NCBI GenBank assembly: GCA_008632985.1
Contig: QPGO01000025.1
Location: 124,001-188,000 of the forward strand
Direction: 5' to 3'
Source: Psammoneis japonica
Taxonomy: Eukaryota
Length of the DNA: 64,000 nucleotides
Under the pieces are notes generated by a model. That model was not told where the DNA came from and ran no database searches. It saw nothing but the letters and a program-made list of their open reading frames with translations. Position numbers and translations under genes: made by a program. Each line of letters begins with the position of its first letter. The stretch's first letter is position 1. This document shows positions 1,003 to 61,990 of the stretch, one piece after another.

Positions 1003-1867
1003 TGAACAAAATTGGGGTGATCACGGATTAGACTGAAGAAAAGCAAACAAAGTACTGGTGGCAGTTGTTGCATGATTAGATTTCGTCCACATGAGACGCG
1101 GTGCTTCTTTTGGTCCTGCTGTGAGCACGTGAGCGAGCCCACTCTCCATCGTGAGTCTATGCGTCGACCGTTGTCGTGTGCGCTGCGCACACCCGGAAGT
1201 CTCCTCATGAGACTCTCGCGGAAGTAAGACGGACGATGTACCAGGGTCGTATGTAGGCGATTTGTTGCCATGTCCTCCTGGTGTGTTTCGTGTAGAATTC
1301 TCCGTAGAAAAGTTTTTTGCGCATGTAGAAACGTGTGGGGATTCCGGAGGCATCGCAACAAACCATCCGTCTGAGACTTCCGCGAGAGAGTCCATGGGAA
1401 AACTGTGGGTGCGTGCGAGCGTGGAGCGTGCATGAAGAACGGTTGACGCATGGACTCACGACAGAGAGAGTGACATGAGCCTGTGAGCTGCAGCAGCTGT
1501 GAGTGACTCAAGATTTGTGACGTGCAGGTTGCTGACAAATGGACAGATGGCAATGCTGTGATGTTCGGCATCAACCAGCCAGCGGCGATTCAAGTTTGCC
1601 ACCCAGTGGAGGCAACTGCATCATTGTTTTTCCTCGACAACGATTGAATGAATCGTTGATGCTGTTCAAGGCCATTGAGAAACATTTGACATCTCACGTT
1701 GCAAGATGAGAGTCATGTCAGTTGGGGTGATCGCTGATTGGACTGAAAAAAGGCATGAAAACAAGGAAAATGCTGGTGCGGAGGATGATTGGATTTTGCC
1801 CACTTGGCTGAGACGCAGCACTGCACTGTTGTGAGTCACAGCAAGTCATGATGAGACATGCCCTGTC

Positions 1868-2505
1868 ACCTGGCAGGTGCAAAGAGGGTGTGCAGTGAGC
1901 AGTGCGTGGCACCCTTTGTGGAAACACACGTCCGAAAGTGAGTGCACTCTGACCAGACAAACAACCCAAAACAAGTGCTGGTGCTGAGATCACCACTTTC
2001 TCTTTCCTTCAACATGAGGGCTTTGTCCAAGATTGCCCACTTGGTCCAGCCTTTTCCTGCCTTGTGCTTGCAACCTCTTGCCACTGAGCCAATGACTCCA
2101 TCAGCTGTGCCTCCCTCTTCTCACCCCAAGTCAGCACCCCAAGTCAGCAACCTCCCCCTCTTGCCATTTCCAATGATGCCAGCACTTTCCCCCCACAACC
2201 ACGCAGCCCTTGGTTCCTCAACTGCTTGTCTTCTCTTGGCCCTCCATTTGGCATCATTCTCAGTTGCTCCAAAACCAGCAATGAGATGCCAACCGCTGCC
2301 CCAACCCCCCAACCCCAATGATCTCATTCTGTCTGCACAAAAGTCACTGCTGGCACACAATTCCTTGTGCCAGACAACCAAAACACCGGCGCTGCTCCTC
2401 TGATCTCACCTCTGATTTCCTCTGAGCAAAAGCCACTTTGTTTGACCAAGCCCTCTTGTGCCTCGCTGCTCACCCCAAAGACACAAGCAAACAAAAAGAA
2501 CTGTC
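1868..2505 (+). repeat. Dispersed repeat, diverged direct copy of 19619-20215 (TE fragment)
   Basis: Shared blocks such as gaccagacaaacaacc, caacatgagggctttgtccaa, ccactgagccaatgactc and aagccctcttgtgcctc occur in the same order in both copies. Confidence 0.85.
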
Positions 2506-2519
2506 ATCCACCACGCACC

Positions 2520-3076
2520 TGCAGATGCCAGATGCGGGTGGTGGGTGGCAGATGGCGGATGGTGGGTGCTGGATGCTGGATGGTGGGTGCTGGATGGTGG
2601 GTGCTGCTGGATGCTTGGTGGCAGATGGTGGATGCTGGGTGCTGGATGGCAAATGGCGGGTGGTGGATGGTGGATGGCAGGTTGTGGATGGTGGATGTTG
2701 GATGGCGGATGGTGGATGGCGAGTGCTGGATGATGGATGCTGGATGGCAAATGGTGGATGAGGGGTGGTGGGTGGAGGATGGCAGATGGTGGACACTGGA
2801 TGCTGGACAGCAGATGGCAGATGGTGGATGGCAGATGGTGGATGCTGGATGGCAGATGGCGGGTGGTGGATGGCAGATGGCAGATGGTGGATGGTGGACA
2901 GCGGATGGTGGATGCTGGATGATGGACGGCAGATGGCGGATGGTGGATGGTGGATGGCGGGTGCTGGATGCTGGATTCTGGATGGTGGATGGCAGATGCT
3001 GGATGGCAGATGATGGATGAGGGATGGTGGATGTCAGATTGTGGATGGTGGATGGCGGGTGGTGGTTGGTGGATGA
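2520..3076 (+). repeat. Degenerate 7-bp tandem array (GATGGTG/GATGGCA/GATGGCG/GATGCTG)
   Basis: Heptamer periodicity is directly visible and produces spurious HPPSTIH-type ORFs. Confidence 0.95.
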
Positions 3077-3109
3077 CAAAACCCAAAATCCATTTTTAGG
3101 GTGCTGCTG

Positions 3110-5020
3110 CTCTTCCGCCCCTGCAACAAGGTAACCCACACCCCCAGCACACCTGACGTGTGGCAGGGGCACACAGCAATCAGCTTAAAATGGCACCACA
3201 TTCAGGTGATGCCATGCCAAAGCAACTGGCAACAGCGCGTGTTCCTTGCAATGCCAAACGTTTTGCCTCATGGATGCTGGATTTGAACATGGGTCTGACA
3301 GCAGCTGACCAGTTTTGGAGCCTGTGAGTGGAGTGCAGGAGGTGCTCCTCAACTGAATCAAAAAGTTCTGCTTGGTCCTTGGCCAAGCAGGCACTGGACC
3401 AAGAACATGTGGCCTTGACCTCTGCTTTGGCATCCCAACACTGCACTGATTTGCTGGTCTTGGAATCATGACCATGGATGGCATCATTGTGCTGGTCCCA
3501 TGATTCCCACCACTGATTCCACATGCAACTGTCAACAGTTGCAGCCCAGTCAACTCCAGATGTGTCACAATCTACAGTTGCAACTGTCTTCAAGTGATCA
3601 AGGCACACCTCATTCCAAAAGGAGGAAAAGTGACCATTGAAAAGGTGTCTCCAGCCAATCTGCTCTTGCGTGTGAAACATCTCCAGTGCACTGTGATGAA
3701 GTTCATCTGCACCAATGATGCCTTTGCTGAACCATGATTCCAAGGCTGTTGTCAAGAAATCATGCATGGGAGGAGATGTGTTGATGTCATTGCATTTCTT
3801 GTGCAATCCTTGAAGGAAGGTTTGTCACCATGCTTCATTGCATGGGCACCATGAAATGTGATCCCTGTCCTCCATTGGGTGTTGACAATGAATGCAGCAA
3901 TCAGGTTGGGTGGGATTGTGCCTGTGAACAATCTTGTTGGCAGGCAATGAGTCTTGAACCAGCTTGACTGTGCTTGCTCTTCTGCAAATGTTGTGAGACA
4001 TGAGTTTGGAATGGACAGGCCAATCTGTGAGTTGGAAAGCCTCGTTGTTCCAGCCATGCTTCTCCTTCATGCATTGCACCAGGGCAGGACTTGAAGCTTT
4101 GCAGTCCACATTTTAATCTCTCCTTCTAAGTCTGCTGATGCTGCAAGAAAGGAAGAGACCGACACTGGAGATCAATGTTTGAGATGAAGCACAAACCAGG
4201 AAGTGGCTTCATCGAGTCAATCCATGTCACAGTCACCATCAAAAACAAGGTCTGCAGAGATTGCATCGCCGACATGACCCAAATCCACCAACAAGGGGGG
4301 AACAGTGAGGGGGTGCTGTGGGCCTGTCCAAAGTGTTTTTTGTTGAAAAGTCGAAGAGCAGTGGCAACATCCACGGGAGCATTGACAGCAACCCATTTGT
4401 CACACTCTTTGGGGTTCACAGAGGGGTCACAGGGCACCTGAACGATGTTTGTCCCCATGCCGTGGTCTGCCTTGCAAAACTTAATCTCACAGAATAACTC
4501 CTTGATTTCTTTGGCTTTTTGTGCATTGCGCAGGACAGCGGCTTTCCTCCTGGATGCCTTTGCACCTTCCAGTTCCAGGGCTGCAATCTTCTCCGCCATC
4601 TCCCATTCTCTGTGCACAACAATGGCTGCCGCCACCTTCTGGCATTCAGACTGGGCCATGCGAAGGGCTGTCTGACATTCCGCAAAAGTCTCAGGAATGA
4701 TGGGCAAGCCCTCAATTTGATTCTGAATGTTTCTGATGTGGCCAACATGGTCAATGTGTGAGTGCACATCATGGATCTGACTCAGCTCAAGACACAAACT
4801 CTGTGTCAAAGCTGAGCCGGTTTGATGGACCATTCTGGTTCACGGTGTGCACAACATTTCTTTGCTGTGGCCAGAGAAAATTGCAAAAGGTCTCCATCCA
4901 ATCTCTCAGCCAACTCAAGATCAGGTGTGTTGAGTTCAAAAAGTGCTCTTGATCTGGACAGAATGTCCCAGCTTGCAAGCATGGGACCAACAGCATCAAG
5001 GCACATCATCACTTGAGGTT
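3110..5020 (-). mobile_element. Decayed non-LTR retrotransposon remnant (diatom LINE, possibly Ambal-like), internally deleted
   Basis: Motifs typical of diatom LINE ORFs: NKKHFGQAHSTP (pre-RT region), C-terminal CCIHCQHPMEDRDHISWC zinc finger, QEQIGWRHLFNGH and W..WDQHNDAIHG. No RT core is visible between ~4110 and 4130. Confidence 0.65.
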
Positions 5021-5025
5021 TTGAG

Positions 5026-5472
5026 GAAGACCGTTCTGGCATCGAACGGCCTTTGTCACGAAATCAACGTGGTTCTCATTCCACCAAATTTTGCACTGCA
5101 CAGAATCTAAATTTATGTTGGCAGAGGCAGTGAAATTTTCATTTGTTAAAAAAAAGTCCACAATCACATGTCAATGATAAAATGACACGGTGTCGCATGC
5201 AATGCAAGTCGTGTGGCACCAGCATTGCTCGCAGCATGCGTCGTTTTGCATGTCACGCAGGCAAATGAGTGAGGGAGCCAGGCACCGATGCACTTTTCAT
5301 TTAAAATGCACTCAACTGCTGTTGCTCCTCCAAGCTGCAGCAAGAGCAAGCTCCAACCAAGCAGTGGCACACTGCACACGCGCATTTTGGCTCGCCTTGG
5401 ATTGTTGAATTTGTGCAGATCCAGCTTGAAGATTGTGCCATGATGGGCATCACCACGCAAAGTGCAAGCCAG
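5026..5472 (+). pseudogene. Inverted duplicate of the fasciclin gene 3' end plus downstream DNA (copy of 16047-16494), hypermutated
   Basis: Reverse complement of 16047-16494. Encodes VLASNGLCHEINVVLIPPNFALHRI* versus the genic VLASNGLYHEINAVLIPPNFVLPRI*. Confidence 0.95.
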
Positions 5473-5484
5473 GGTCAGGGATTG

Positions 5485-8235
5485 CAGATGATGCATGATG
5501 GATGATGGATGGTGGATGGTGAATGATGGATGGCGGATGGTGGATGGTGGATGGTGGATGGCGGATGATGGATGGTGGATGGCGGATGATGGATGGTGCA
5601 TGATGGATGGTGGTTGGTGGATGGTGGATGGTGGATGGTGGAGGTGGAGGTGGATGGTGGATGATGGATGATGGATGATGGATGGTGGATGATGGATGAC
5701 GGGTGATGGATGGTGGATGGTGGATGATGGATGAAGGATGACAGATGATGGATGGTGTTTGATGGATGGTGGATGATGGATGATGGATGAAGGGTGATGG
5801 GTGGTGGATGGTGGATGGTGGATGGTGGATGATGGATGATGGTTGGTGTTTGATGGATGGCGGATGATGGATGATGGGTGATGGATGGTGGATGGTGGGT
5901 GGTGGATGATGGATGATGGATGGTGGATGATGGATGATGGGTGATGGTTGGTGGACAATGGATGATGGATGGTGGATGGCGGATGATGGATGATGGATGA
6001 TGGATGGTGGATGGTGGATGGTGGATGGCAGATGATGGATGATGGACGATGGATGGCGAATGATGGATGGTGGATGGTGGGTGGTGGGTGGTGGATGGCG
6101 GATGATGGATGATGAGTGATGGATGGTGGATGGTGCATGATGAATGATGGATGATGGATGGTGGATGGCAGAGGGTGGGTGGAGGGTGATGGATGATGGA
6201 TGATGGCAAGTGGACAGTGGATGATGGATGATGGATGGTGGATGGTGGATGGCAGAAGATGGATGGTTGGTGGCGGATGATGGATGATGGATGATGGTTG
6301 GTGGATGGTGGATGATGGATGGTTGACGACAGATTGTGATGACAGATGATGGATGGCAGATGATGGATGGCAGATGATGGATGATGGATGAAGGGTGTTG
6401 GATGATGGATGGTGGATGGCGGACGACAGATGATGGATGATGGATGATGGGCGATGGTTGGTGGGTGGTGGATGATGGATGATGGTTGGTGTTTGATGGA
6501 TGGCGGATGATGGATGGTGGATGATGGGTGGCGGATGATGGATGGTGGATGGTGGATGGCGGGTGATGGACATCGGATGATGGATGGTGGATGGTGGACG
6601 GTGGACGGTGGACGGTGGACGGTGGATGATGGATGATGGATGATTGATGATGGGTGGAGGGTGGTGGATGATGGATGATGGATGGTGGATGATGGATGGT
6701 GGATGATGGATGGTGGATGGTGGATTGCGGATGATGGATGATGGGCGATGGATGGTGGATGATGGATGGCAGATGGTGGATGGTGGATGGTGGGTGATGG
6801 ATGATGGGTGGCGGATGATGGATGATGGGTGGTGGATGGTGGGTGATGGGTGGCGGATGATGGATGGCGGATGGTGGATGATGGATGCTGGATGATGGAT
6901 GGTGGATGGTGGATGGTGGATGGTGAATGATGGGTGATGGTTGGTGGATGCTGGATGGTGTTTGATGGATGGCAGATGATGGATGATGGAAGATGGTTGG
7001 TGGTTGGTGGATGGTGGATGGCGGATGGTGGATGATGGGTGATGGATGATGGGTGGTGGTTGGTGGATGGTGGATGGTGGATGATGGATGATGGATGATG
7101 GGTGATGGATGGTGGATGGTGGATGATGGATGATTGATGGTTGATGATGGATGGTGGGTGGTGGATGATGGATGATGGATGGTGGATGGCAGATGGTGGA
7201 TGCTGGATGGTGGCTGGCGGATGGTGGATGGTGGGGTGGGTGGATGGTGGATGGTGGATGGCGGATGGCAGATGGTGGATGGTGGATGTTCAATGCTGAG
7301 TGCTGAGTGCTTGATGGTGGATGGCGGATGGCAGATGGCGCGTGGTGGATGGTGGATGGTGGATGGTGGATGGCGGATGTTGGATGCTGGATGCTGGGTG
7401 GTGGCTGGCAGATGGTGGATGGCAGATGGTGGATGTGGGTTGGGGATGCCAGATGCTGGATGCTGGGTGCTGGGTGCTGGATTGTGGATGGCGGATGCTG
7501 GATGGCGGATGGCAGATGCTGGATGGTTGGTGGCAGATGGCAGATGTTGGTTGGTGGATGGTGGACGCTGGATTGTGGATGGTGGATGCCAGATGCCAGA
7601 TGCCAGATGCTGGATGCTGGATTGCAAATGGCGGCTGGTGGCTGGTGGATCACAGATGGCGGATGGCAGATGGTGGATGCTGCATGCAGGGCAGCGGATG
7701 AGGGATGGTGTTGATGGTGGATGGTGGATGAAGGATGCTCCTGGTGGATGATGGGTGGTGGATGGTTGATGGTTGATGGTTGATGGCAGATGGTGGATGG
7801 CAGATGGTGGGTGCTGGATGCTGGATGCTGGACACTGGATGGCGGATGGCAGATGGTGGATGCTGGATGCTGGATGGCGGGTGCTTCTTGGCAGATGGAT
7901 GATGGTGGATGGCGGATGGTGGATGGCGGATGGTGGATGCTTGATGGTGGATGCTGGATGCTGGATGGCGAGTGACAATTGCTGGATGGTGGATGGAGGA
8001 TGGCCAGTGCTGGATGGCAGATTCCTGATGGCAGACAGCAGATGCTGGATGGCGAATGGTGGAAGGCAGATGTTGGATGGATGACAGTGAATGGCAAATG
8101 GCGCATGGCAGATTGTGGATGCTGGGTGGCAGATGTCAGATGTCAGAATGTTGATGGTGGATGGCTGATGGTGCATCATGGAGGATGGCAGATGCTGGAT
8201 GGCAGATGGTTGATGGTGGATGCTGGATGGTGGAC
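5485..8235 (+). repeat. 2.75 kb degenerate 7-bp tandem array (GATGGTG/GATGATG, later GATGGCA/GATGCTG/GATGGCG)
   Basis: Heptamer periodicity is directly visible. The first ~1.7 kb is rich in GATGATG and the last ~1 kb resembles array 2520-3076. Confidence 0.97.
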
Positions 8236-10959
8236 TTTGACAAAAGACCCCTTCCAATGAAAAATTGGACCAATCAGAGCACTTCATTTCAAGGACACAC
8301 ATCATTGCCATGCTTGAAGCTTTCTGAAAGAATGCACATCATCATCATTCAATGATTGCTTCAACACAGACATGGCCATCTTTGTTGATCCATCTCAGAC
8401 AGATGTGCTGCAATGTGACTGGTGCTGGGATAAAGACACCTCACAAAAAATTCATTTTCCTTCTGTCTTTTTGTGTCTCACTCATCATCAGTGCTGACCT
8501 GTGCAAGAGAATTTTGAGAGAAGGAATTTCAGCAGAACGGAGAAGCACCCCCCCCCCCCCCCCAAGCTTCCCAACACCATGGGCATTCAGTCTCAGGCTT
8601 GAAAGCCTGCCTTGAGAACAACAGCAACGGAGCAAGTTTTTTCCAAAAATGCACCTTGGTTTGCACAACGTCACCAACAGCGATGGCAGAATTGCAAATT
8701 CTGACTCCACCAAACAGTCGTGCCCCTCAAGAAAAGCTTGTTGAGTGCAAAAGGTGCAAACAAGTGCCCTCCTGCAAAAAGGGTCATGCTGCAAGCTGCC
8801 CAAAATCCATCCACAGTGGAAAAAACATGAGCACCAAGCAAATCTTGGCTGTCCACCACTTCATCACAAGTGGTGCAAGAAAGGATGCAAGAATTCTGGG
8901 TTGTCAGGCCCCAACTGAGGAAGGCATGGAGACACTGTTCTGCAATGGCGCCAGGGCTTCAAAAACAACAAGCCATCTGCAATGACCATCTTGTTGCCTG
9001 CTCCTGCTGCTCTGCTGCTCTGCTGCTGCCAACACTGCTGCTGCTGCCATCAGCGCCATTGCGTCAAACAGCATGGAGCATTCTGCCAACAATGTTGAAG
9101 AAGATCCTCTCTCTGAGAGGTGCCAGAGAGATTTGGAAACAAATTGAAATGTGCAAAAAAGAAGATTTCTTGTCCTGCACCCACTCAGGCTTTGATTTGA
9201 AGCCTTCTGGACTTGTGCCCACATTGGTTTCATGTGAACTTGAACAAGACAATGGGCAGAGAGGTGAATGCCAAAAAACTCAAATGGCGTCAGCAGAACT
9301 TTCCTTCTGGTGCCATGTCATTTGCAGTGCCATGTGATGACATGACCAAGAAAGACTCTTTGCAACCTCTGCAGTGAGATTGAAGACATTGCAGTCCATG
9401 TCCTCTTCTGGGAAGAATTGCACTTTGCTGACATGTTTTTTGGTGAGGACATTGCATGCAGGCTTGGTCTTTGGCACTGGACAAACCACATCATTTGGAC
9501 TTTGTGAGGTGCTCACAGTGATTGTTGCTGTGCAGTTCATGAATCAAAGGATTGTGCTGGTGCAATGATGAATCCAATGAGGTGAAGGTGGTGGATGCTC
9601 TCATCTTTGGGAAACTTCTTCTTGGTGGGAAGAAGAACATGAGGGAAGAAATTGAGAACATCAAAAACATCAAGAAGTGGAGTGACTGCAAGAAGTGCAT
9701 TCAAAGGTGGACTCATCAACTCAAAACATGGAACAAGCATCTGGAATCTTGGTTCAATCAGCACAAGTGCTCTGCATCTCCTGGCATGGCAGAGGCTGGC
9801 AGATGGCATGACCCAGACTCTTGGAAACCACATTTAATGGAAAACACAAAGCCAGTGGTCAAAAACGCAAAATCACCAGCTCATGGACTTGATGAGCCAC
9901 TGCCATGTGAAGACTCATGCAGAGTTGTCACAAGCCTTCAAAATGGTCCAAGTGCAAGCTTGACATGTTTGCAAGAACAACCACTGGCATGGAATCAAAG
10001 CTTGAAAACCATTGCCACATCATTGAGCATTTTGGAAACTCTGGTTCAAGATCCTCTCTGATGGTGCACTGTGCCTTGCAGGCATGTGTGAGTGCAAAAT
10101 CTCAACATGAGAGCATGTCCAAATGGATGAACTGATTGCTGATGAGTGCACCAAGATTCCGTGCACCTTTCAAGGTGTTCCTGCTTTTGTCAACCACAGC
10201 AAGCTCAGCTGCATCAACAAGCTGGCAGAGAAAGCAGAAGCCCCCCATCCTGTGCACAGGAATGTCAAAGCACTGAAAGAAGATGATGGTGAGTGGCATT
10301 TTTCAGTGCACCTGGAGCAATTGGAACATGTGAGAGAGCAGCTCAAGACAACAAGAGCTGCAACCAGCACAGTGGCAGCAGCAACCAAAAAAGATTCTGA
10401 CAGATTCATGTGCAACAAAAAGTGTGGCACAAGAAACCCACATTCAACCCACTCTAACCCAGTGCCAATTGTGAAGAATCCATGCAAAAGAAAATCCAAG
10501 TTGCAGCACCCACCGCCGTCTGAGGAGCCACGAGCAAAAAAAGTGAAACCTTCCAATTTGCAAGAGGAGGTCATTCCACCAAGACAGCCACAGCCAACAC
10601 CAATTGCCTTTTGCTCTAACCTGCATTGCATCTCAAGTTGAGGACAAGATGGAAGATGTGGAAAATGGGAAATGGGGAGCAATGCCGCCCAAATCAAATC
10701 AACCTTTGCATCTTTTCATGCACAATGGGCTGATGTCCTCTGTCTTCAACACCATGAAAATGCAACAATGCATTGCACCTTGCACTCACCTCCACCATTG
10801 CTGTGTTCTTCTCATCTTTTCCTTCCTCTCCTCTCTTGTTGTTGCAGCAGCAATGGGGTTGCCTTGCTCCCCCTCTCCCCCCTCTTCTTCCATTGGCGCA
10901 CCTCCTGTGTTTTTGTGGAAGGAGTGTGTTGTGACTGAAGAGGCTTGGTTGTAGAGAAT

Positions 10960-11490
10960 TTGGCAAAGAAGTGTCAAGAAAAAGTCATGGCAGCCAAAAA
11001 GGCACTGGATGCACAGTGAGTGGCTCTTGCTGGTTTGTTGAGCCACTGGAAGCTGAGCAGGAGTCTGTTTGTGCTGACAAGCATCATCCTGGTGACTTTT
11101 CTTTCAAAGTGGCTTGGACTTGGGCTGATTGCATCATCAAACACACAAAAGTGAATGACATGATTGATGGGGCTGTGGTGAATGACAGTGAATTTGCTGC
11201 TGTGCCCGCGCAAAGATGCTTTTGATTGAAGATTTCAAACTCAAAACGGCAACAAAGAGAAATCCTCCAGCTGTTTCAGATTGCTTGTTGGAGTCTTTGT
11301 CCCATTCTGTTCTGGACTGGCAAGCGCAATTGTGATGGCATTGAAGCTTGGAGATGGGAAGATCAAAAGGGCCAAGACCCAATGATGAGAGCTGTGATTG
11401 CAGCTGGCATTGGCTGCAATGCTTTTCCTGCTGGTGTTTTTAGCATGGGCCCAGCAACAATTTTGAAATGGAAGCAGAAGCAACCAGATG
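10960..11490 (+). pseudogene. Decayed XPG/FEN1-like nuclease fragment (XPG-I and H3TH motifs)
   Basis: KVAWTWADCII...IDGAVVNDSEF resembles the APxEADAQ...DAVxSxDSD motif. VIAAGIGCNAFPAGVFSMGPATILKW resembles the H3TH motif LxGCDYxxGIxGIGPxTA. Stops and frameshifts are present. Confidence 0.5.
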
Positions 11491-11825
11491 CCCCACCCAT
11501 TTTTTTTTTGCTGAACTTCCATTTTTTTTTTTGCTGGTGGCCGGCCTGATGTCCACATTGGAGCACGTGCATTGTCAAACAATCTCAAGAATCGCCACAC
11601 ACAACATTTGATGTAAACACACATGTGATTCAATTTTGCAACAAGTTGGTGTTCTGTTTGGGCGACAGTGGTGAGGGGTCTTGCGGTTTTGAAAATTTGA
11701 AAAACACGTCATTCTGAAAGAATCAATCTGTGGTGTGATGTTGTTCAATGGCCACGATGAACGCTGGCACCAAATGCAAGGGGAGAGGGGAGCACATGCA
11801 ATGATCATAATTCCATCAAGCATCC

Positions 11826-12207
11826 AGCAGTTGACATCATGAGCAGTGGCAATGATGAAGAGGCATTCCTGTCCTTCAAAGGCTCCATGGATGGCAAATC
11901 AGTGCCAGCTCAAAAGCAAGAAGCAGCGGAACTCATGAGTGGCAGCAATGAAGAGACACCATCACCTGTCAAAGGCCACAAGGACAAGTGCACCGGCAAT
12001 GAGGCATCTCATGGAGCAGTTGATGTCATGAGCAGCAGCAGTGATGAAGAGGCATTCCCATCCTTCAAAGGCTCCATGGATGGCAAATCAGTGCCAGCTC
12101 GAAAGCGAGAAGCAGTGGAACTCATGAGCAGCAGCGATGAAGAGATGCCATCACCTGTCAAAGGCCACAAGGACAAGTGCATTGGCAATGAGGCCGCATC
12201 TCATGGC
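11826..12207 (+). repeat. Two-unit ~190 bp in-frame tandem duplication inside decayed ORF 11839-12624
   Basis: The peptide MSS..DEEAF.SFKGSMDGKSVPA.K.EA.ELMS...EE.PSPVKGHKDKC.GNEA occurs twice. Confidence 0.9.
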
Positions 12208-13799
12208 AAAGCTTTCTCGCGCAAATTGGGTGTGCCGAACGAAGCCACAAACAAAACAAGTTGGAGCAAGAAGCACAGTCAGTGGTGCATGGACGTGAAA
12301 GAACATGGTCAGCATTGTGTGCCTTCAAGTGCTGAAAGTCGGAGTTGGTGTGATCACAAAAAGAAGCACTTCAACAGCCACAAAGCATTCATGGATGATG
12401 GAGGGTCCGATTTGGCATGGGACAAGAAGAGCCGCTGGAAAGGTTGTAGTTTGAACAACATGGAGCTCTTTGAAAAAATGATGCTCCAGCACCCTCGCCT
12501 CCCAACCAGCAACAAAGGCAAGAAAAAGTCAAGGACTGTCTCCCCCAAGGCAGGTGCCAGAACTGACACCCCCAGCAAAAACCAAGCCTTCTGTTTCATG
12601 GCTTCGTTCCTTTCCTTTGATTGAAATTTCATTGGATCAAAACAATGACAACAAAGCCCTTGTCCAAGCATTGTTTTGGCACACAGAGGAGCACCGAATC
12701 ATTGCCATGGAACAAAAAAATGACAATCATGGACGCTGTGCTGTGGATCTACACCACATGTCATTGGAAACAGCTGTGGTGAGAATGTGCTGCTTCATCA
12801 TCTTCCTTGTGCTGACTTTCGAGACTCATCCGTTTCACACATCTGCTTTGTTGAATTCATTGTAGCATGACAAACATGTGAAAACAGCGGGAGACATTCA
12901 GAAACACATTGCTGGAATTGGGCAGAAGACATGCTCTGCCCCTTGCATTGTTGAGAAGCAAATGAAAGGGATGACCCCAAATCAGTTGTGAAGCAAGAAT
13001 GTCATGAAACAGTGCACTGCTGCACAATCACCTTACCTTTCCGACCCACATGCCATCAATCCACACTGCCAATTCCAGAGCAGAATGCTGTGCAACCACA
13101 GTCACAGCAGCAGTGCTGACAAGAGCTGCAACAGTGAAACCTTGTGCATTGAGAAGCAGAGGTTCAGGCGTGATGAGAAGGCAAATGCCGATTTGGAATG
13201 AAACAAACCCAAACAACAGAACAACTCATTGGCATCTTGCACAACATGAAGTGGGCCATCCATGTTCATGAGAGACAAACATCACAACTTCATGAGTGCC
13301 AAACGGCATCTCATGGGAGCAGCAAAGGGCAGTTGCATTCAGGGACTTCTTGGGGGGGTGACAGTCGATGGCATTAGACTGCACTGAAGGATGCCCTTGA
13401 ACTCAGCACTCAGCCGCCGCACATCCCAGCAACGCAACTTTTGCAGTTGCTTCACTTCGTTCATCACTGTTCTGACAATGGGGCATCTCAGCAGACACCT
13501 TCTTGCATTGTTCTGCACAAGCATTAGCATGCCGCCCAACAGGGGACGATGTCTGGCCCGTCAGCTCCGAGTCTCCAGTCTCATTGTTGATGATTGCGGC
13601 AGTGAGTAAAGTGGCGATCGCTCTTTGTTTGCTTCGATGCAATCGTGATGTCACAGGATGATTCCAAAGAAATGACATGTCCATTCATGAATCAATTAAT
13701 GACATTTTTAGAAAGCCAACAGCCCACTTTCACATGGATGGGGTTGGCTCGCTGCCGACCATGTGCCAACCACACTTGTGACAGCAGGCATGGCAGGCA

Positions 13800-17464: not shown

Positions 17465-17824
17465 CCTTAACTCTACTCACAAACAATCAAATGAGGAGTG
17501 CGGGAAAAAACGTCGAGTGCGCTTTACGAGAAATTCAAAACGCAACAGCAATTTCGAAATTTTTGGCACATGACATGAAAGAAGAAAAAAAGCTGATACT
17601 ACTACTTGGGTAAATTATAAACTTAGCTGAATGTATGTCTATGTTCGTTGTCGACCATGCGCACGGCAGCCTATCCTGTCCGTTATGCATAATCGATCTG
17701 GCTGTACAGCTGACATTACTGTGTAATCAAAGCTGTACATATATTATGTTTTTTAGATGCAGTACTGTAGCATTCCGATCCTCTATTGCTTTCCGTTGGT
17801 ACGATTTTGAATCTTTTTACCGGC

Positions 17825-24745: not shown

Positions 24746-24901
24746 AGACTACCTAGAGCACAACACATTCACACTGTTTTTTTCCCCTCAAGAATATGCT
24801 AAACATAAGCTGTTTGTCTATATGTACAAATCTATAGCTCGCATTTGCAGGCAACCAGTATGCTTCGCCGTGGGCAAACAAGTTTTACCCAACAAGCTCC
24901 A

Positions 24902-46137: not shown

Positions 46138-46399
46138 ATTGTTGTGTTTGAATAAGTTGCAGAGTACTTGTAGAGTATGCAGTTGTCAGTTGTAGCAACA
46201 AAACAATAGAAGGGTGTAGTTGTAGTAGTTGTAAGGATTGCAGCAGCTACGAAAGTGACAAAAGACAAACAACAACAACAGCAACAACAACGTGCTGTCA
46301 ATGCGGCGACAAGCTTTTCTGGAAGGCGACGGAATGCCACCGAAAATTGAAATAATCGTATTCATTCACTACGGTTTTGGTATGTTTAGATCTTTGTTT

Positions 46400-48305: not shown

Positions 48306-48376
48306 CGGTTAAATCAATCCTAAAAAACTTATTTACATTACACATCTAATCTAAAACACGCCACAATGTTTCTTCA

Positions 48377-52001: not shown

Positions 52002-52249
52002 AAAATGCTTAACAAGTTTTTTTAGTAAACAAGAATACTGCTCTTATAGACTCTAGTAGTTGTGCAAGTACTTCTATTACGACATCACTGCCCAACTGCT
52101 GAATAGTGTGTGCTACAACACCGCTCCCGGACCACTCATCACTGCCATCCCATCATCGTCATTTATTACCGTCATTTATCACCCCACGAAACCGCCAAGA
52201 GCAAGAACGCCACTGTCAGCGAATAAACACCGATGCAGCAGTTAGGACA

Positions 52250-55200
52250 TGCCCATGCCTTGAAGATGAGAGCAAGCACTTCCAGCAACACAGCCAACAT
52301 GAACCTGGTCATCACACCACGATTGTGATCTTGAACGCATGCAAGGTCACAAGCAATGACTGTCCCAATGAGGGGCAGAACACACCATCAGAATGCCCTT
52401 GACCCCAGCATGAAACTGCAGTCACCGTGCAGATTTGTCCACATGCAACATTCTCTCCATGAGAGACAAACCACACCAAGCACTCGTGTTGATGTGTGAG
52501 TCTAACGTGTGTGTGGCATTGGCATTGGGACACCACTGGAAACCAAACAAACACAGTTTCCTGTGCCACTCTCCAGCTCTCAGCTTTGTCAACAGATCCA
52601 CCGACAAGCTCACACCATCTTCCTTTTCCACTTGAATGATTCCAGCCACACTGCCACAGCCTCACAACAGCTGCACATTGTGCTTCTTGTGTGGCAGGCA
52701 TGCCACTCATGCATGCAAAACATGCTGAGTTGCTCATTTTTTCCATTTGGCAACAACTGCGCCCCAACCATGCTTGTGTGAATTGTCCTTGGTGGGCTCA
52801 TTTCACGTGACTGATGACACATGGGCAAGCAGCTCTGGTGCAAACTCTCCAAGGTTGCCAGATGTGGCCAAGTGTCAAATTGGAAACACCCAGCAAACTG
52901 ATCAAAAGGAGCTGACATTGTGTGTGCATGTGCATGGGAAGTTGGAGCAGCAGCCACATCTTCAGGAAGAGTGTGAGACAACAACTCCATCTCTGTTCAC
53001 CCCTGGACTGCATGTCCTGCCCAGGCTTCTTGCAAGCAACCTCTCATTTCCTCTTTCTGAATTTCCTGCCCCAGGCTTTTGTGGGTGTTGGCTTCATTCT
53101 GTAAGGAGGCTCTTGTTTTTGAGAATGTTGCGTGCCCAAAAAAGGTTGCCCAGCTTCAAAGCTTGGTCATGTCTGTGCTCTGGCATCTCACAAACAAGCC
53201 ATTTGTGAGATGTTGCTGCCTCATTCAGCCTTTTCCACTCCAACAAGGTGCCCCCCCCCATGCACCAAGAAGAGAGCAGCTCCTGCACAATGTCACATCT
53301 CTGAACAAAAGTTGACAAAAGGCTGGCCACCTTCTGCTGTGCACAGCAGTGTTTTCTCTTCCTGCTTGGCTTGCTTCTTGATGCTCTCTCCAGCAGACAA
53401 GCAAAAACACAAACAAAGAGCTGCCCTTTCGGCAAAAACAACAAATGCCTCACACATGGTGCAGTGCACACCACGCACCACAGATCATTTTGCTCACCCA
53501 AAATGCAAACCAGCTGGGCTTCTGCATCCCTACCACCAGCTTCAGGAATCTGTTTTCACACTTTGCTGCATCATCTAAATCAGCAATTTTCCCACCAGCA
53601 AGTTTGCAAAGAGAGTGCATCAAACCCCACATCTTTTGGCACTTTGTGCTGCATTGGCAACAACAGCAGATTTGTGAGCAAGAGAAAATGGCCCAGCTGG
53701 TTGCAGGGTCACATGACAATGATGCAGTGCTGCAATTTTTTTCTCTCCTTGTTTTTGGCAGAGGAGATTTTCCTCTTTCACGACCCACAGCTTTCACATT
53801 TCAGGCTGTCAGCTCTTGCCTCCTCCTCCTCACTGCAACAAAAAAAGCTCTTTCACCTCCCCAAACAACTTTCATTTCCAAGCCTGACCATGCACTTCCA
53901 TGTTGCAGTCTCCAACAGTCATCTGTTCTTTGCACACTTTTTGGGCAGGTTCAAGAGCCAAGCCTCAAATGCCCTGGGAGATGGGGCACCACCTTGGCTT
54001 GCACACTTCCACCTGCCCTCATTGCTGCTGGCAACCATGTGACAGCAACAACAACAACAACCACAGGATTTGGAGCTTGCCCCTCTTTCTCTTAACTCAC
54101 CTGGTTGTCAATCTGTGGCTGTGTCTTCTCACCCTCCATCTCCTCCTTCTTGCTGTGGGAAACACCTGCAAGAGAGACTCAGCCTTCTTGGACAAAGGAT
54201 CTTGACCTTCTGCAGCCTGACTTTCATTTCTTTTGTCTCCTCAGTGTGAGCAAGAACAACAGCTGAAAATGGCCAGCCACCTCCAACCCCGCGGAAGATG
54301 GAGAAAAAGATGAGCAGATGTGAGCCAGTCTTTTGCGCTGCCAAACCTTTTGCTGCTGCCCACTTTTCTGGCCAAAGACAGCAAGCCATTGCTCTGCCCT
54401 CCTCTCTCACAATGCAGTGGAGGGAGAAAAAAAGACAAACAAACACAAGCCAGCCTTGTGTGCTGCTGAATTTTTCACCACCACTTTTCCATTGGCATTT
54501 CACTTTTGGGCTCTTGCCTGTGCCTGGGAGTCTGATGAGCTGACTCCATCTTTTTTCACCAAGATGTTGTCAGCATGTCATGGCATTTTGCGCTCACAAC
54601 CCAATGATGACACCACGCTGCTCCCAGCGTGCATGGATGGCTTCAGCCAAGCTGTTGCAACAGCTTGAAATGGTCTGATCCCCCTGCTGCACTGCTGGTG
54701 TGCTGCTGGGAGTGTGGGCTGGCTTGTGTTTTGCCAGAGTTGCAGGGTGGAAGTGCAGCAGCACCTCAAATGTGGAATTTGGGTTTTGTTCTTGAAATGG
54801 TCTGATTGACTGCAGACAAAAGCATTGTCCACAATTGCTTGGTCCAGACCTGTGGTGGCGGAAGGCAGTCTCTTTGGGGTGCAAAGACATTGAGCATGGC
54901 GTGATGGAAAAAATGTGAGTGAGTTTGAGCCAGCCTTGTGTGCTGGGACTTCTTCTGCCACCGCCCACTTTTCTGGCCAAAGGCAGGGTGCTGCTGCTCC
55001 CCACTCCCACACGTCAGAGGGAGAAAAAGACAAGCAAATGCAGGCCAGAGACTTGTGTGCTGCCAAGTCTCTTTTGGCGCCACTTTTCCATTGCCCATTT
55101 TTGCTTTTGGATCTCAGCTGTGCCGAGAAGTTTGTTCAGCCAATTTTCCATTTTTCTTTCATCCTCGATCCAGACAAGAGCAGCCAAAAAACAGCGCTCT

Positions 55201-55440
55201 CTCTCTTGGTCTCTTGGATGATCCCAAGGCACAGCACATCACACACAACTGGCACGCCACAATCTCACATCACCACCCAACAAACTGGTGCAAAACAGAT
55301 GAAACTCACCCACCTTGTGCTTGATGCTCAATGCAGGCACTGGTGCGAGCATGCCCAGTGCACCACAGCACGTGTCACAAACTATGTGGCAATCCTACAC
55401 TGTGAGGAACTGAGCGAGATGCCGGCACGAGCATCCTCGC
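52250..55440. other. TpA/CpG-depleted repeat domain 5 (decayed unclassified element; internal direct repeat ~54315-54500 vs ~54920-55100)
   Basis: TA-poor. gcccacttttctggccaaag and ccacttttccattg are shared by the two internal copies. Confidence 0.85.
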
Positions 55441-56878: not shown

Positions 56879-59800
56879 TCAATTATACATGGCCATCGTG
56901 GCAGCCTTTAGATCACCCGTCTTGGATGTTTCCGCTTCACATGCGGTCGTCAAGTCGTCCATTGTCACTTTACGATCCTTTTCATCGACACGGAGTGCTG
57001 CATGAGTAGCGGCACGAAGCAATGAATTCTTAATGTCCCCGCCGCACATTGGAAATCGAACGGCTAGCTCCTTGATAGACACGTCCGACGCCAAGGGACA
57101 GTCGGATGGAATGAGTGACTTCCATAGCTCTTCTCGCTCGGAAACGGTTGGCATGTCAAAGTCCAGCACAAAGCGGAATCTGCGGAAAAAGGCTTCATCA
57201 ATGGCCTTCTTCATGTTTGTAATGACAATGCAGACTCCGGGGTGGTTTTCAATGTACTGCAACAAGAGACCAACATTCATAGTGTCGTGACGCCCAGCGG
57301 AGGACGATGTGCCTTCAGAACGAGAGCCAAAGAGTCCCTCAGCTTCGTCAAAGACTAGAACCGCGTCCTTCTTTTTGGCATCGGCAAAGACAGCCTGAAT
57401 GTTCTTGCCTGTGTCTCCAACCCATTTCGACACTAGCTCCGCCATATTGACAACCAAAAGGGGACGTGCGAGATCAAAGCCAATCGCCTCGGCCGCCATG
57501 GTTTTGCCCGTGCCGGGCAGTCCTGTAAACAAGGCACTGATGCCGGTTGTCGACCGATGAATCTTTTCAAAGCCCCACTGGCCGAATAAGACCGACTGAG
57601 CCTTGGTATACTGAACGATGCTACTGAGAGAGTTCTTGATCGTGGGCGTTAGCACCATGGACTCTAATCCACAAGTGGGGATAACGCGGCGGTCAAAGTC
57701 TTCCAGCGTCAGCTGTCCAATCACTTGTTCTCCAGCAGCCTGCATGAGATCTTCTTGACTAATCTTGTCTCCACCGCGCTGGACCATGAGACCAAGACTC
57801 TGTAGCCACGCATTTTTGATAAGACCTCCCGTCAGCTCGTACTTTTTGGCAAGCATACCAAAGTGAATGTCGTCCTCGAGGGGCACCTTGGGAGGACGGA
57901 GGGTCTTCCAAATCTTTTCTCTCATGATATGATCGGGCTTGCGAAACTCCATGGCTAGCGAGATGCGTCGATGCATAGCCTCATCCAAGTCATGAGCTCT
58001 ATTGGTGGCGAGAATGCACAAGCCATCAAATCGCTCCAGTTCCGTCAATATCATGTTCACAGACGAATGACCGCCCTTGTTTCTATCCATGAATAAAGAC
58101 TCGCATTCGTCAAAGAATAGAACCGCACGATTGATGCGGGCTTCACGAAATAGAAACTTGAGGATTGCACCCGACTGATTTGTGCCAAGGTCAGGAAAGT
58201 TGACAAGGAGAACCTTCTTTTTGAGCTTGGTGGCAACGGCATTTGCAAGCATTGTCTTGCCTCTGTGACGTGGAATTACATTTCGTGGGTAAGATCGGAA
58301 GAACGAAAGTTTAGACATAAAACAAGAAATGATTCACTTACGTTCCGCTGCTTCCATAGAAGAGCAACACTTGCCCCAGTCCGTAGGTAATCTTTTTGTC
58401 AACCTCGTATTCAAAATACTTGGATTTGACCTTTTCGAAATTCAACACGGCATCGCAAATTCGCTTCTTGGTTTCGGCAGGAATGATAACATCATCTAGC
58501 TCCACATCAGGCAGGTAGAGGTGGGAACCGTCGACAATCTCACTCATTTCCGTATCAAGGCCAACGAGATAATCAAATAGACGCCGGTCGAGCTGCACAG
58601 TGCCAAAAGAAGCAAGGAGAACGCGTTAGTGAAGTATCAGAAATTCTGTAAGTCGTATCGTCTAATACGCACCTCCACATTGCAGTTTGACAAGTCCGTC
58701 ATAAAATCCTGTTGGGAGAGTGTAAGAATTCCCTCTCGAATCAAAGTGCCTGACTTGTAAAAGAAGCGACGACTCATCATTCGGTCTTCCAATGTAAAGC
58801 AGAAAGACTCAATCAGTTCACCAACTTGGGCAGAACGAGTAAACTTCCTTTTTGACGCATACGGGTTGTTAAGGTCAATCGGCGGGGCGATAGTTGACTT
58901 GAGCATCTCTAAAAGACAACACTTTTCGAATTTCTCAAGACACAGAGCGGCACACAGCTGTTCTAGCCGAAAATAACGACCAGTTTCAAGCCGACTAGCG
59001 TTAATCTTCATTCGAATCTTGTCTCGGAGCTGCTTCACAATACTTTCAAGCCTTTCAGCCTTTTTCTCCTCCTTGAGTCTTTCAGTTGGAGTCCTTCCCG
59101 TAATTTTCTTCCGCATATTCATTGGCAACATCTCATATTCTAACTCCGGGATATCATCATTCTCGAGGCCGTGTGACTCTGCAAAGTTAGCATCGTCAAG
59201 CTTGCGATCGGCGAGAGACTGCTTGAGCCTCCCTAGGCTCGCTTCTTTTCGAATTAGCGTAATCTGGTCTTCCAGGTATGCAAGTTCAGACTTGTATGGA
59301 CCATAATCATCCTTGACCTTTGTCTCTTTGTCGCCATCAACCTTGGTCTCTTCTTTTCCTTTTTCCTCTGCTGTTGACGCTTCGGCTGTCTCTGGCTCGT
59401 CTTTGGTATGCGGCAACTTTCGTTCCTGCTCTGCAGCCTGTGATAAAATGTCAAAGATGCGATCTTTCATGGGAGCCCTATTGTCTCCAGTCTTTCCGGC
59501 ATCCTCCATCATTGCTTGCGCGATGAAAGACGGCGCTTGATCCATAGAGCCTTCGTTTGCCTTTTCACCCGCTTCTTCCATTTTCTTCTGATGAATAATT
59601 GTTTTTCCGGCCGTTGTCTCTTGAAACGCTTCATCCTCCAACAGAATCTTCTGAAGCATCGAGCTCCCTAGTGACCGGTACTGGGAGGCAGTAATTTCTA
59701 GCCCCATAAGTACACGCATGGTGGTTTCGTCGGCTCCGAAGAAATTCTGTCCATACCCAGCGAGAAGGTACAATTGTTCCGTTAACCATTTGGAAGATTC

Positions 59801-60526
59801 GTCATTCACCATGGGTATGAGGTTTGTTAGGGTTGCGCCCTCTTCTGCAAAGAGCTCACGAACTTGAGTCATGGAGTAAGCAAGAGCTCCGGAGGACCGC
59901 CCTCGCGCACTGAAGTTGAAGGTTGGCGTTTCGTATTCGCCCACAGTATTTGTGTTTCCCATGCCAGAATACCTCACGACCGTGTATCGAAACACCATCT
60001 TCTCCAGCTTGGTGGCCTCCAATGCATCCAGGAGTTTTTCCAAAACAGGTCGCTTCTTCATACTTTCAAGTTGAGAAGCACGTTTGGCTTCTAGTTCTTC
60101 GAAAAGGCCTCTCAACAGTGCTTCTAGCTTGCGACCTCTGGTGATAAGCTTCGAATTCGGAGAACCGACTGCATGACTCCGAAAAGAAACTACGCTTCCA
60201 GTGACACTTGCTGATACTCTGTGAATCATGGCGCGGAGGGTTTCAACGGCTACCAATGCTTCAAAATAATCATGATCTGTCACGAGTGCCTCGGATTCAC
60301 GAAAGCGGGTGACACACGCCGGAAGACAATAGGGCGGAATCTCTTTTGGCTTCTTCTCCTTTTCGCCGTTCTTCTCCTGCTTCTCATCGTCTTGCCCATC
60401 AGTCGTGCTGTCACCGTCAATCTCTGACATCAGTGCTTCAATCTGAACTTCATCCTTTTCCTTTCCTATTTCCCCTTTCTCGTTGGCTTGCCCGTTTTGG
60501 ACACCGTCACCGTTAGTCTCTGGCAT
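56879..60526 (-). CDS. Tandem AAA+ ATPase (3 exons: 60526-58673, 58592-58342, 58262-56879)
   Basis: Splicing two GT-AG introns yields Walker A GSSGTGKT with Walker B LFFDECE. The second domain has GLPGTGKT, LVFDEAE and IDEAFFRRF. The start codon was chosen at MPETNG and is uncertain. Confidence 0.9.
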
Positions 60527-60829
60527 TGTTTCTTGAGTAGTGTTTTTATGTTTTGCTTCTAGAGTTTGTTGTTTCGTGTTGTTCGTTGCAGCAACCATTG
60601 CCATCCACATCCAAAATCTGGAATCACAAGTCACAAGCGCAATGACCGTGAGTCGATTGAGTCGTGCATATCGATTCGAGATCCAATCTCCTGTATGTAG
60701 AAACCTACGTATTGGCAGTACAAAAGGAGCTTGCGCGACCTGGCCGTGGCACTGAACGGAGGCATACCGTACCGTACTTACAGTACCGTACAACATGCGC
60801 AATGCGGCACATTTTTTATTGCTTTTTTT

Positions 60830-61990
60830 TTTTGTTCTGCGCCTTCGCACGAATCCCGCCAGTCGTCGCGCTCCTGACAGCGGCGACACTCTCCGATTGC
60901 AATGCGATTGTTGGTGTCTCACTGTGTTGCTTCTGTTGTGTGGCCATTGCTGCACAGCTGCAGCAGCTCTCTCAGGCTGTGCACTTTTGGCTGTGTGCCT
61001 CCTGCCCAGGTCTCAGGTCCCCAGCTCACGTGCAGCAGAACCTCGCGCCGCTCTGTCACCTGCCACCAGCTTAGAAGAATGAAAGCTCTCTCCACTCTGT
61101 CTCTTGCACCCATCCCCTTTGGTTGAAACCTGTGCCTTTGGCTAGAGCAGATGTGCACACAGTGCCACGACCTTTCGTGTGCTCTTTGGAGGGTGCTGTG
61201 AGCACAGTGTGTCGCAGCACACAGTGACTGGGTCACAGCAAGCTGCCCTGGAAATTGTGCACCAAGGCAAAGGGCAACAACCCAAGCTTTTCCAACAAAC
61301 AGCCGCTGTTGTGGGCACTTCTGCAAAAGCTCTCTCCCAGCGCTCCTCTTTGCAGAGCCCAGTGTGCTGCTCCATTGCCTGGCAGGTGCTGCATTTTCTT
61401 CAGGCCCAGATGTGCAAGGTTTGTTTTTGCTTTTTCTGTCTCAATTCCCCCCCAGTGTGTGTTGTTTGCAAAACATGCCAGCTGCCACATCCAGAGCAGC
61501 AAAACCCAAGCTCTTCCAAGTTCCCCAGCCTTGTCTTTCCGGGCATGTGATGGGAAGCCAGTTGCAGCAAACTCAAAGCACCTGGCAAATCTTGTCTTGA
61601 GGAGTCCTTCATTTCAAGGTGGCTTTTTTCTTGTTGCAGTCACCTCCACAGGATGCAAATTTCTCGGCATTGCTTTGAATGCTGACAGCTCTCTCCAGAA
61701 CTTCCTCCAGTGGCCAGGGCTGTCTGCTCAAGACTGAGTTCCACGTGTGAAAAGAAAGCACATTTTTTTGGCTGGGACTGGTGGAATTTCTTGTTGCTTG
61801 TTCCCTGGGCATTGCAAGGATGGCTTTTTGTAGAGAAAGGGGAAGCCGCAATCAAGGTGACAGCACAAACAGCAAGTTCGACAACATGATGTGTACCGGA
61901 AGCATGTAGAACAACAAACATGTGTGGGCTGCTGTGTTCGTGTAGTTTTTGTCTGTCTGGCTGTCTTGTTGACATTGAACTCAAACTGAG
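60830..61990. other. TpA-depleted repeat domain 6 (~1.1 kb decayed insert)
   Basis: Short TG/CA-rich block between two normal genes, with TA reappearing gradually at both edges. Confidence 0.8.

Follow-up and report, generated by a model that had tools for sequence, protein, structure and literature searches.

Hypermutation that is directed at TpA and confined to particular regions of a genome has been described once, in the chlorarachniophyte Bigelowiella natans. In mutation-accumulation lines, 230 of the 231 mutations in giant-virus and virophage inserts were A>G or T>C, every GC-biased mutation in these inserts lay on TpA, and the rate per site and generation, in some lines only, was ~6e-7 (between about 1e-7 and 1e-6) (Mettrop et al., bioRxiv 10.64898/2026.01.13.699255). 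The preprint also describes 324 coding sequences with a TpA frequency of 0.0018, enriched for reverse transcriptase (RT) and DDE domains, together with 124 clusters of TpA-poor, CpA+TpG-rich windows, and its authors propose an ADAT2-like deaminase. Fungal repeat-induced point mutation (RIP), too, is a regional transition hypermutation, specific to a dinucleotide, which disables transposons and leaves sharp compositional blocks beside normal genes, but it is a C>T change at CpA that creates TpA, it is triggered by duplication, and it mutates both copies. Here, we report six blocks in a window of the diatom Psammoneis japonica (positions 124,001 to 188,000 of contig QPGO01000025.1, assembly GCA_008632985.1; the window is the whole 64-kb stretch that was analysed, and all coordinates below refer to it) that have lost nearly all TpA, with enrichment of TpG and CpA and with CpG decay alongside. 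The diatom case adds a distant second lineage, in which this once-described process has reached saturation.

A scan in 1-kb sliding windows, combined with a two-state segmentation on TpA counts at 100-bp resolution, recovered six TpA-poor blocks (1401-16200, 17801-24600, 27101-38100, 46401-48300, 52301-55300 and 60801-61800), in agreement with six domains delimited earlier from the letters and open reading frames (ORFs) of the window (hereafter, the sequence-only reading). Together they make up 38,500 nt, or 60% of the window, and contain 109 TpA where ~1,282 would be expected at the frequency of the remaining 25,500 nt, which contain 934. Taken to the nearest bounding TpA, they are as follows.

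1327-16215: block 1, with 38 TpA in 14.8 kb; holds two heptamer arrays, a tandem duplication and repeat arm A; edge TpA at 1326 and at 16145-16216.
17819-24661: block 2, with 18 TpA and 35 CpG in 6.8 kb; single-copy by depth at 17.8-21.3 kb and multi-copy at 21.3-24.7 kb; edge TpA at 17818 and 24662.
27067-38186: block 3, with 39 TpA in 11 kb; includes a high-copy repeat at 29.3-34 kb (summed depth in run X1 up to 4,761) that has kept half its CpG and lost its TpA; edge TpA at 27066 and 38187.
46388-48309: block 4, with 6 TpA in 1.9 kb; holds a Copia RT relic; edge TpA at 46387 and 48310.
52244-55382: block 5, with 5 TpA and 27 CpG in 3 kb; edge TpA at 52243 and 55383.
60818-61830: block 6, with 3 TpA in 1 kb; starts directly upstream of a WHD/AAA gene; edge TpA at 60817 and 61831.

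Dinucleotide frequencies were compared between 35,028 nt inside the blocks (the two heptamer arrays removed) and the 25,500 nt outside. TpA stood at 0.0031 inside vs 0.0366 outside (observed/expected ratio, o/e, 0.05 vs 0.54), a 12-fold depletion, CpG at 0.0156 vs 0.0594 (o/e 0.26 vs 1.03), and TpG+CpA at 0.2207 vs 0.1479 (o/e 1.77 vs 1.18), which confirms the loss of TpA, the loss of CpG and the saturation in TG/CA described in the sequence-only reading. Base composition was the same inside and outside and the remaining dinucleotides were nearly constant; ApA and ApT were not depleted (AA/TT o/e 1.24 inside vs 1.16 outside). The sum of the four pyrimidine-purine (YpR) steps was 0.239 inside vs 0.244 outside, and the loss of TpA and CpG, 0.077 of dinucleotides, was nearly balanced by a gain of 0.073 in TpG and CpA. 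Such a balance is expected from conversion, and is predicted neither by a foreign composition nor by selection. CpG decay supplies only ~57% of the TG/CA gain (0.044 of the 0.077 lost). Among stop trinucleotides the blocks hold 61 TAA and 24 TAG vs 868 TGA, and it is because of this loss of TAA and TAG that they contain many long ORFs on both strands. The residual TpA in the blocks (n=107) are unevenly distributed over contexts: RTAY is near extinct (ATAT 0, ATAC 0, GTAT 1, GTAC 2) and TTAA is the most frequent (28 of 107). Within the blocks TG and CA occur about equally often, and both strands are affected alike. Strand-coordinated runs of TG or CA, which would be the trace of processive single-strand editing, were looked for and rejected: a runs test on TG/CA outcomes gave z between -0.7 and -1.7 for five blocks, -2.67 for 52301-55300 and +0.1 to -2.6 for normal segments, so that the clustering of outcomes in the blocks is little, comparable to that of normal DNA and no stronger.

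The edges of the blocks are abrupt. TpA stops or restarts within 20-50 bp, beside normal host genes; at block 1 the last preceding TpA on the left is at 1326, and on the right TpA at 16145-16216 are followed by dense TpA from 16286. The change-points of TpA and CpG lie at most 85 bp apart at 7 of the 12 edges, and the two losses largely share their boundaries with no systematic overshoot. An offset of about one nucleosome between the TpA and CpG edges was also considered and rejected, the offsets ranging from -295 to +605 bp with a median of 5. Between the blocks, TpA use is normal in neighbouring genes and introns, as the sequence-only reading had it: the noncoding flanks of these genes are TpA-rich, and the one intron that could be defined (25182-25264, 83 nt, from a contig of run X2 that joins 25181 to 25265) has 5 TpA. 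Because flanks and intron are TpA-rich, the contrast between inside and outside is not the product of coding selection. The intron falls in an unannotated gene at 24.8-26.1 kb, for which Pfam gives no match.

The direction of change, and its dependence on position, are seen in an inverted repeat of which one arm lies within block 1 and the other straddles its right edge.

5030-5472, minus strand: repeat arm A, 443 nt, inside block 1; inverted copy of arm B at 93.5% identity.
16047-16488, plus strand: repeat arm B, lying across the right edge of block 1 beside the fasciclin gene, its outer 272 nt outside the block.
16538-17476, minus strand: fasciclin ORF, next to arm B.

The outer 272 nt of arm B retain TpA and CpG. 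Of the 15 aligned TpA in arm B, 11 read TG (7) or CA (4) in arm A, as do 8 of its 25 CpG. In the reverse direction, only 2 of 17 CpG of arm A are TG/CA in arm B, and all four ungapped TpA of arm A are kept. Transitions account for 25 of the 28 substitutions between the arms, and 26 of the 29 differences fall at 16217 or beyond, where arm B is outside the block. The alternative, in which transitions of both TG and CA gave arm B 11 new TpA and 8 new CpG, is far less parsimonious. The proportions converted (11/15 vs 8/25) put the decay constant of TpA at about three times that of CpG. A search with tblastn for a hypermutated fasciclin pseudogene beside arm A gave none.

Duplicates that lie wholly within blocks have diverged in the same manner. 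One of them is the following.

11826-12206, plus strand: in-situ tandem duplication, 2 x ~190 nt (11826-12014 and 12015-12206), in block 1.

Its two copies are separated by 17 substitutions, all of them transitions and 15 at YpR steps; ten make up five CA:TG double mismatches, and another five are CG:TG or CG:CA. Among adjacent double mismatches, CA:TG is the most frequent in each of the four intra-block pairs (13, 5, 5 and 5), with 13 of 25 in the pair 1869-2469 and 19619-20181, and 5 of 14 and 5 of 21 in the other two of the three older pairs. Since a CA:TG pair implies an ancestral TpA or CpG that was resolved separately in each copy, these changes arose in place, after duplication.

A third line of evidence comes from the only recognisable transposon protein in the blocks.

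46817-47167, plus strand: Copia-type RT relic (RVT_2), frameshifted, Pfam E 1e-5 and below the gathering threshold, in block 4.

Exhaustive phmmer searching found 1,337 relatives of this relic (best E 1.5e-34), and we aligned its ORF to 149 of them, cluster representatives at most 50% identical to each other. In the six columns with a consensus tyrosine, the relic reads C, H, Y, C, H and C, with codons TGC, CAT, TAx, TGC, CAC and TGC, so that at five of the six positions the residue is explained by TA>TG or TA>CA. The peptides GNACLEA, KCKF and KHIER, on which the suspicion of converted tyrosines had first been founded, are indeed present at 46.4-47.2 kb. The same pattern recurs elsewhere, since 20 of the 149 relatives, from public protein sets, carry Cys or His in at least three of the six tyrosine columns, in combinations that vary from one to the next (for example WHHCHC, CHCHHC and CHHHCC).

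Among Copia-bearing metagenome contigs, of which the best 80 of 459 relatives were analysed by a ranking that favours intact copies, TpA o/e ran from 1.0 down to 0.11 (at a locus with TG/CA 1.59, L062), about ten loci lying at 0.26-0.42. Eight loci of one project form a single, unrelated Copia family, 83-96% identical over ~3.5 kb, in which the same process is seen half finished. Of its TpA-containing column pairs, only 8 of 158 are invariant and 66 are three-state, compared with 88 of 259 and 14 for the ApT control; for CpG the values are 23 of 186 and 40, against 73 of 232 and 8 for the GpC control. Pairs with 'TG+CA only' occur 33 times, vs 2 for 'GT+AC only'. Every copy has converted its own subset, 33-82%, of the shared ancestral TpA. 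When changes were polarised by majority with at most two deviants, A>G amounted to 0.113 per site per copy at TpA vs 0.026 in other contexts (4.3-fold), and C>T to 0.081 at CpG vs 0.027 elsewhere; 415 of 489 derived states at TpA (85%) are TG or CA. Two outcomes that the sequence-only reading had named as refuting, an A>G rate at TpA no higher than at other NpA and copies natively free of TpA, did not occur: in this family A>G at TpA exceeds that in the other contexts, and TpA was ancestral. Counted as adenine events, T-A-Y (0.33-0.38) is favoured over T-A-R (0.18-0.22), which agrees with the near extinction of RTAY in the window.

The losses of TpA and CpG can be told apart. In block 3 at 30-36 kb, CpG o/e is 0.5 and TpA o/e 0.02-0.13, and in block 4 at 46.77-47.10 kb 27 CpG survive in 330 nt that lack TpA. 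Since TpA is gone where CpG is still at half its expectation and from the latter stretch as well, TpA loss is the faster of the two. Among the metagenome contigs, four (L001, which is 10.3 kb of a 63.7-kb contig, L021, L024 and L041) have CpG o/e of 0.10-0.20 and TpA o/e of 0.51-0.71, and L057 has 0.25 and 0.49; the sources of these five show CpG decay without marked TpA loss. A Copia-bearing contig of 2.4 kb (L052) has the opposite signature, TpA o/e 0.33 with CpG 1.02, and suggests that TpA hypermutation is possible without cytosine-methylation decay. Along L052, TpA o/e forms a gradient from 0.11 to 0.52 and CpG o/e lies at 0.84-1.28.

The blocks are repeat-rich, mostly unrecognisable DNA that includes single-copy stretches and satellites. 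Judged by summed depth of the Logan contigs of run X1, the stretches 21.3-24.7 and 29.3-34 kb occur in multiple copies (hundreds to thousands vs ~65), with block 2 passing from ~65 in its first part to 200-3,700 in its second, and 14-21.3 and 24.7-29.3 kb are single-copy at a likeness of at least 85%. We scanned with Pfam 124 ORFs of at least 110 aa, block 4 read through in six frames and 329 shorter block ORFs (55-109 aa), and among the 449 block ORFs scanned the RVT_2 relic was the sole match to a transposable element (TE) protein. The sequence-only reading had spoken of transposon domains that hold nearly all TE remnants. As written, the latter statement is not confirmed, although the one TE relic recognised by Pfam does lie in a block; the former is only partly borne out, by this relic and the two multi-copy stretches, and much block DNA is single-copy and unrecognisable. 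Other features of the blocks are these.

5487-7967: heptamer array, unit GATGATG/GATGGTG, ~355 units, block 1.
2539-3075: related heptamer array, ~76 units, block 1.
1869-2469, plus strand: dispersed repeat, paired with 19619-20181 at 74% identity, in blocks 1 and 2.

The heptamer arrays have an ApT o/e of ~3 and produce spurious ORFs of 950-980 aa. The 600-nt dispersed repeat has no recognisable coding content and is probably a relic of an unclassified element. In the high-copy, TpA-free and CpG-retaining repeat (summed depth of at least 3,000), an ORF of 473 aa at 30441-31862 on the plus strand is uninterrupted and has paired CxxC...H motifs without a Pfam match. Either a zinc-finger protein of a TE could be encoded here, or the ORF was merely kept open by the loss of TAA and TAG.

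The DNA between the blocks consists of host genes with short flanks. By Pfam these are, besides fasciclin, a sugar transporter, an alpha-carbonic anhydrase, proteasome Rpt2, biotin carboxylase, a mitochondrial carrier, APC10 and a gene with WHD plus AAA domains. Among at least 120 matches listed for the Rpt2 ORF, the seven named near-full-length relatives, at 87-94% identity, are from diatoms (Rhizosolenia, Leptocylindrus danicus, Proboscia inermis and Bacillariaceae sp., with further diatom names beginning Stauro-, Odonte- and Amphip-); the two with the highest bit scores, a nematode and a fungal protein, are longer and only 68% and 79% identical. The listing contains no match of the ORF to itself, and the genome is probably unannotated. 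Run X2 is RNA-like and, within 14-34 kb, covers mainly the gene at 24.8-26.7 kb, with a few contigs shorter than 50 nt matching 23.2-24.3 kb, inside block 2. On the minus strand at 56882-61012, a WHD-domain ORF is followed by a double-AAA ORF. Among at least 120 matches listed, the closest are marine eukaryote sequences (87%, 73% and 68%), many bacterial proteins of the 'SpoVK/Ycf46/Vps4 family' match at ~40%, and no named diatom homologue is among them.

In our best explanation, to which we assign a probability of about 0.6, the blocks are repeat-rich diatom chromatin, probably silenced and cytosine-methylated, in which two DNA-level transition processes have run in parallel: the ordinary decay of CpG to TpG/CpA, and a faster conversion of TpA to TpG/CpA that is by now essentially complete. 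The latter is governed by where the DNA lies, not by coding content, repeats or RNA, and ends tens of bases from genes; host flanking DNA copied into a block, as in arm A, is affected and its twin outside spared. Position and not repetition is indicated because block stretches of single-copy depth are depleted and arm B is spared. We further suggest that an enzyme drives the TpA process, most likely a deaminase that would turn adenine into inosine in a 5'-T-A context, that it may be recruited by the same chromatin state that carries 5-methylcytosine (5mC), and that transposons and other invading DNA would thereby be destroyed, in the way of fungal RIP. TadA and ADAT2 act on U33-A34 of tRNA, which is a 5'-T-A-like context; the adenine-deaminase step is a tentative assignment that falls a little short of an even chance. 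By contrast, we are highly confident of the core of the argument, namely depletion, direction, TpA specificity, dominance of transitions, regional confinement, independence of each copy and occurrence in other organisms. The proposal of the sequence-only reading that a second, TpA-specific regional mutator from T:A to C:G works beside CpG decay has therefore gained backing from tyrosine codons turned to Cys or His, from the repeat arms, from the CA:TG mismatches and from the graded Copia family.

Several points weigh against this explanation. The arms were compared without an outgroup. At 5 of the 12 edges the TpA and CpG change-points are 175-605 bp apart, in either direction, and the two losses are separable (at 46.77-47.10 kb, at 30-36 kb and in L052), so that a coupling to 5mC is not obligatory. 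The preference at position -2 disagrees between data sets, T being favoured there in the metagenomic family and TTAA being the commonest survivor in the window. With one recognisable TE relic in 38.5 kb, 'invading DNA' is shown for only part of the blocks, and silencing, methylation and a role in defence are what we infer rather than what we observed. The footprint fits a lesion of adenine and a lesion of thymine alike. Finally, run X1 is possibly the source sample of the assembly and its library type is off record; its agreement with the assembly excludes an artefact of the assembler, but not every sequencing artefact.

The last point bears on the possibility that the footprint arose in assembly or base calling at modified bases, long-read consensus errors being known to occur at modified motifs. 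However, the Logan k-mer contigs of X1, which are built from reads independently of the assembly, span 14-34 kb at a depth of ~65, with 0-3 differences in each piece of 1.9-6 kb, and 98% of sampled words of 15501-25500 are present in the run; the bases of the window thus have the support in reads that the sequence-only reading had asked for. Related copies within X1 differ from the window at 373 places, 321 of them transitions, and among the 40 best-supported places listed, 20 are CG<>TG/CA, 6 have TpA in the other copies vs TG/CA in the window and 14 are other changes. The footprint also recurs in metagenome contigs of other projects and in the 20 RT relatives. On the strength of the X1 k-mer assembly and the metagenomic Copia family an artefact is unlikely, and we give it next to no weight. 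No more credible is the view that there was no mutator, the blocks being foreign or repeat DNA that was natively poor in TpA or from which selection removed it. Some viruses and elements do avoid particular dinucleotides, and the high-copy element at 29-34 kb is TpA-free yet CpG-rich, but conserved tyrosine codons have been converted, the YpR steps balance, the twin of arm A keeps its TpA, duplicates carry CA:TG double mismatches, and the metagenomic copies have each lost a different part of their ancestral TpA. Only slightly less improbable is that transcripts of retrotransposons were hyperedited from A to I as RNA, and that the changes were then fixed through reverse transcription and reintegration. 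ADAR editing is A>G with a 5' U preference, and one block element is a Copia retrotransposon; a resemblance to ADAR is also raised in the Discussion of the B. natans preprint (bioRxiv 10.64898/2026.01.13.699255). Yet the tandem duplicates and the copied host flank diverged once in place, the heptamer arrays and single-copy DNA are just as TpA-free, the edges track position and not the ends of elements, the strands are affected equally, and depletion reaches ~95%. To our knowledge, moreover, ADARs are known only from animals.

A further rival takes TpA loss for a side effect of error-prone repair or replication that occurs only in heterochromatin, such as polymerase-eta-like synthesis at WA motifs; neither a dedicated editor nor a defence would then be involved. 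TA is a known polymerase eta hotspot, and regional confinement with edges shared with CpG at 7 of 12 boundaries would suit any process tied to chromatin state. Polymerase eta, however, yields many A>T and A>C changes, whereas transitions prevail at TpA in the metagenomic family (415 of 489), between the arms (25 of 28) and between the tandem copies (17 of 17); the removal of TpA is near total, and ApA shows no comparable loss. This account is accordingly quite improbable, and polymerase eta, one of the candidates named in the sequence-only reading, is a poor fit to derived states of which 85% at TpA are transitions. The main rival, unlikely but not negligible, is a lesion of thymine: a dioxygenase of the TET/JBP type would oxidise T in TpA to 5-hydroxymethyluracil (5hmU) or 5-formyluracil, which would mispair with G and give T>C. 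The footprint is strand-symmetric, and T>C at TpA explains every count equally well; read as thymine events, the flank preference becomes R-T*-A. Thymine hydroxylation in a TpA context is familiar from base J in kinetoplastid telomere repeats and from the 5hmU of dinoflagellates, and 5-formyluracil is mutagenic towards T>C. On the other hand, 5hmU itself pairs well with A, and we know of no thymine modification in diatoms.

Enzyme-driven erasure of TpA beside CpG decay, as we propose it, can be set against the systems described so far. Deamination of 5mC accounts for one half of the footprint, CpG>TpG/CpA, and for the CG:TG and CG:CA differences between copies, but it cannot remove TpA, and the two losses are separable. 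APOBEC3 and ADAR restriction likewise act against mobile elements through base-deamination hypermutation, and ADAR shares a 5'-U/T preference with TadA/ADAT; however, APOBEC3 makes C>T changes at TC or CC, and the substrate of ADAR is RNA, whereas here chromosomal DNA is changed in place. RIP would be a functional analogue working in the opposite chemical direction: in the window TpA is destroyed and CpA/TpG enriched, and the change passes over a copy outside the block and reaches single-copy DNA.

The closest likeness is to B. natans. In both, TpA becomes TpG on one strand and CpA on the other, the change is confined to regions, and its long-term outcome is low TpA with high CpA+TpG. The low-TpA coding sequences reported for B. 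natans are close to the blocks (0.0018 and 0.0031), and 38 of the 64 1-kb windows here pass the low-TpA, high-CpA+TpG thresholds of that preprint. On this footprint, the blocks appear to be the work of the same kind of process, and the claim of the sequence-only reading that such a system was undescribed has been overtaken by the hypermutation of integrated foreign DNA reported there. The reported targets in B. natans are viral inserts; the blocks here hold one Copia RT relic and two multi-copy stretches, and their remainder, in which there are single-copy DNA, satellites and a copied host flank, is of no recognisable origin. The two cases nonetheless differ. A rhizarian is concerned there and a stramenopile here; mutation was measured as it occurs there, and is known here from its footprint alone. 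In the diatom the process is saturated, and its razor-edged blocks, with single-copy and satellite DNA among them, take up 60% of a gene-bearing window; CpG decay runs alongside, which the Results and Discussion of the preprint do not mention. What is new here is the razor-edged blocks abutting genes, the dependence on position revealed by the repeat arms, the co-extension with CpG decay and the metagenome evidence for further organisms. Full-text literature searching found no description of TpA hypermutation in a diatom, and the terms hypermut-, TpA, RIP and dinucleotide are absent from the available text of two diatom TE papers (PMC2806351 and 10.1101/2025.10.24.684338).

We tentatively propose, at close to but below even odds, that diatoms, chlorarachniophytes and other protists known from metagenomes share a chromatin-guided editor of double-stranded DNA, a TpA-specific adenine deaminase or a mutagenic thymine oxidase, that would erase TpA from silenced or invading DNA about three times faster than methylated CpG decays and serve as a RIP-like defence in the Stramenopila-Alveolata-Rhizaria (SAR) lineage. 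If so, the footprint would be a permanent, sequence-readable map of heterochromatin, and the enzyme of a class so far not known to work on chromosomal DNA in vivo. With a second distant lineage, the enzyme can be sought by comparison, among genes common to lineages that erase TpA and absent from those free of the footprint, and a natural editor of DNA directed at TpA, whether A>G or T>C, would be relevant to base editing. There are also consequences for the reading of diatom genomes. Erasure of TpA hides transposons from homology searches, as the single Pfam match in 38.5 kb illustrates, and biases the dating of TEs by divergence, and the removal of TAA and TAG creates long spurious ORFs on both strands, which is an annotation hazard. 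Where epigenomic data are lacking, block edges offer a read-out of long-term heterochromatin boundaries from the genome assembly itself. If one process explains both the diatom and B. natans, it would be a widespread mechanism of genome defence or genome decay in major marine primary producers.

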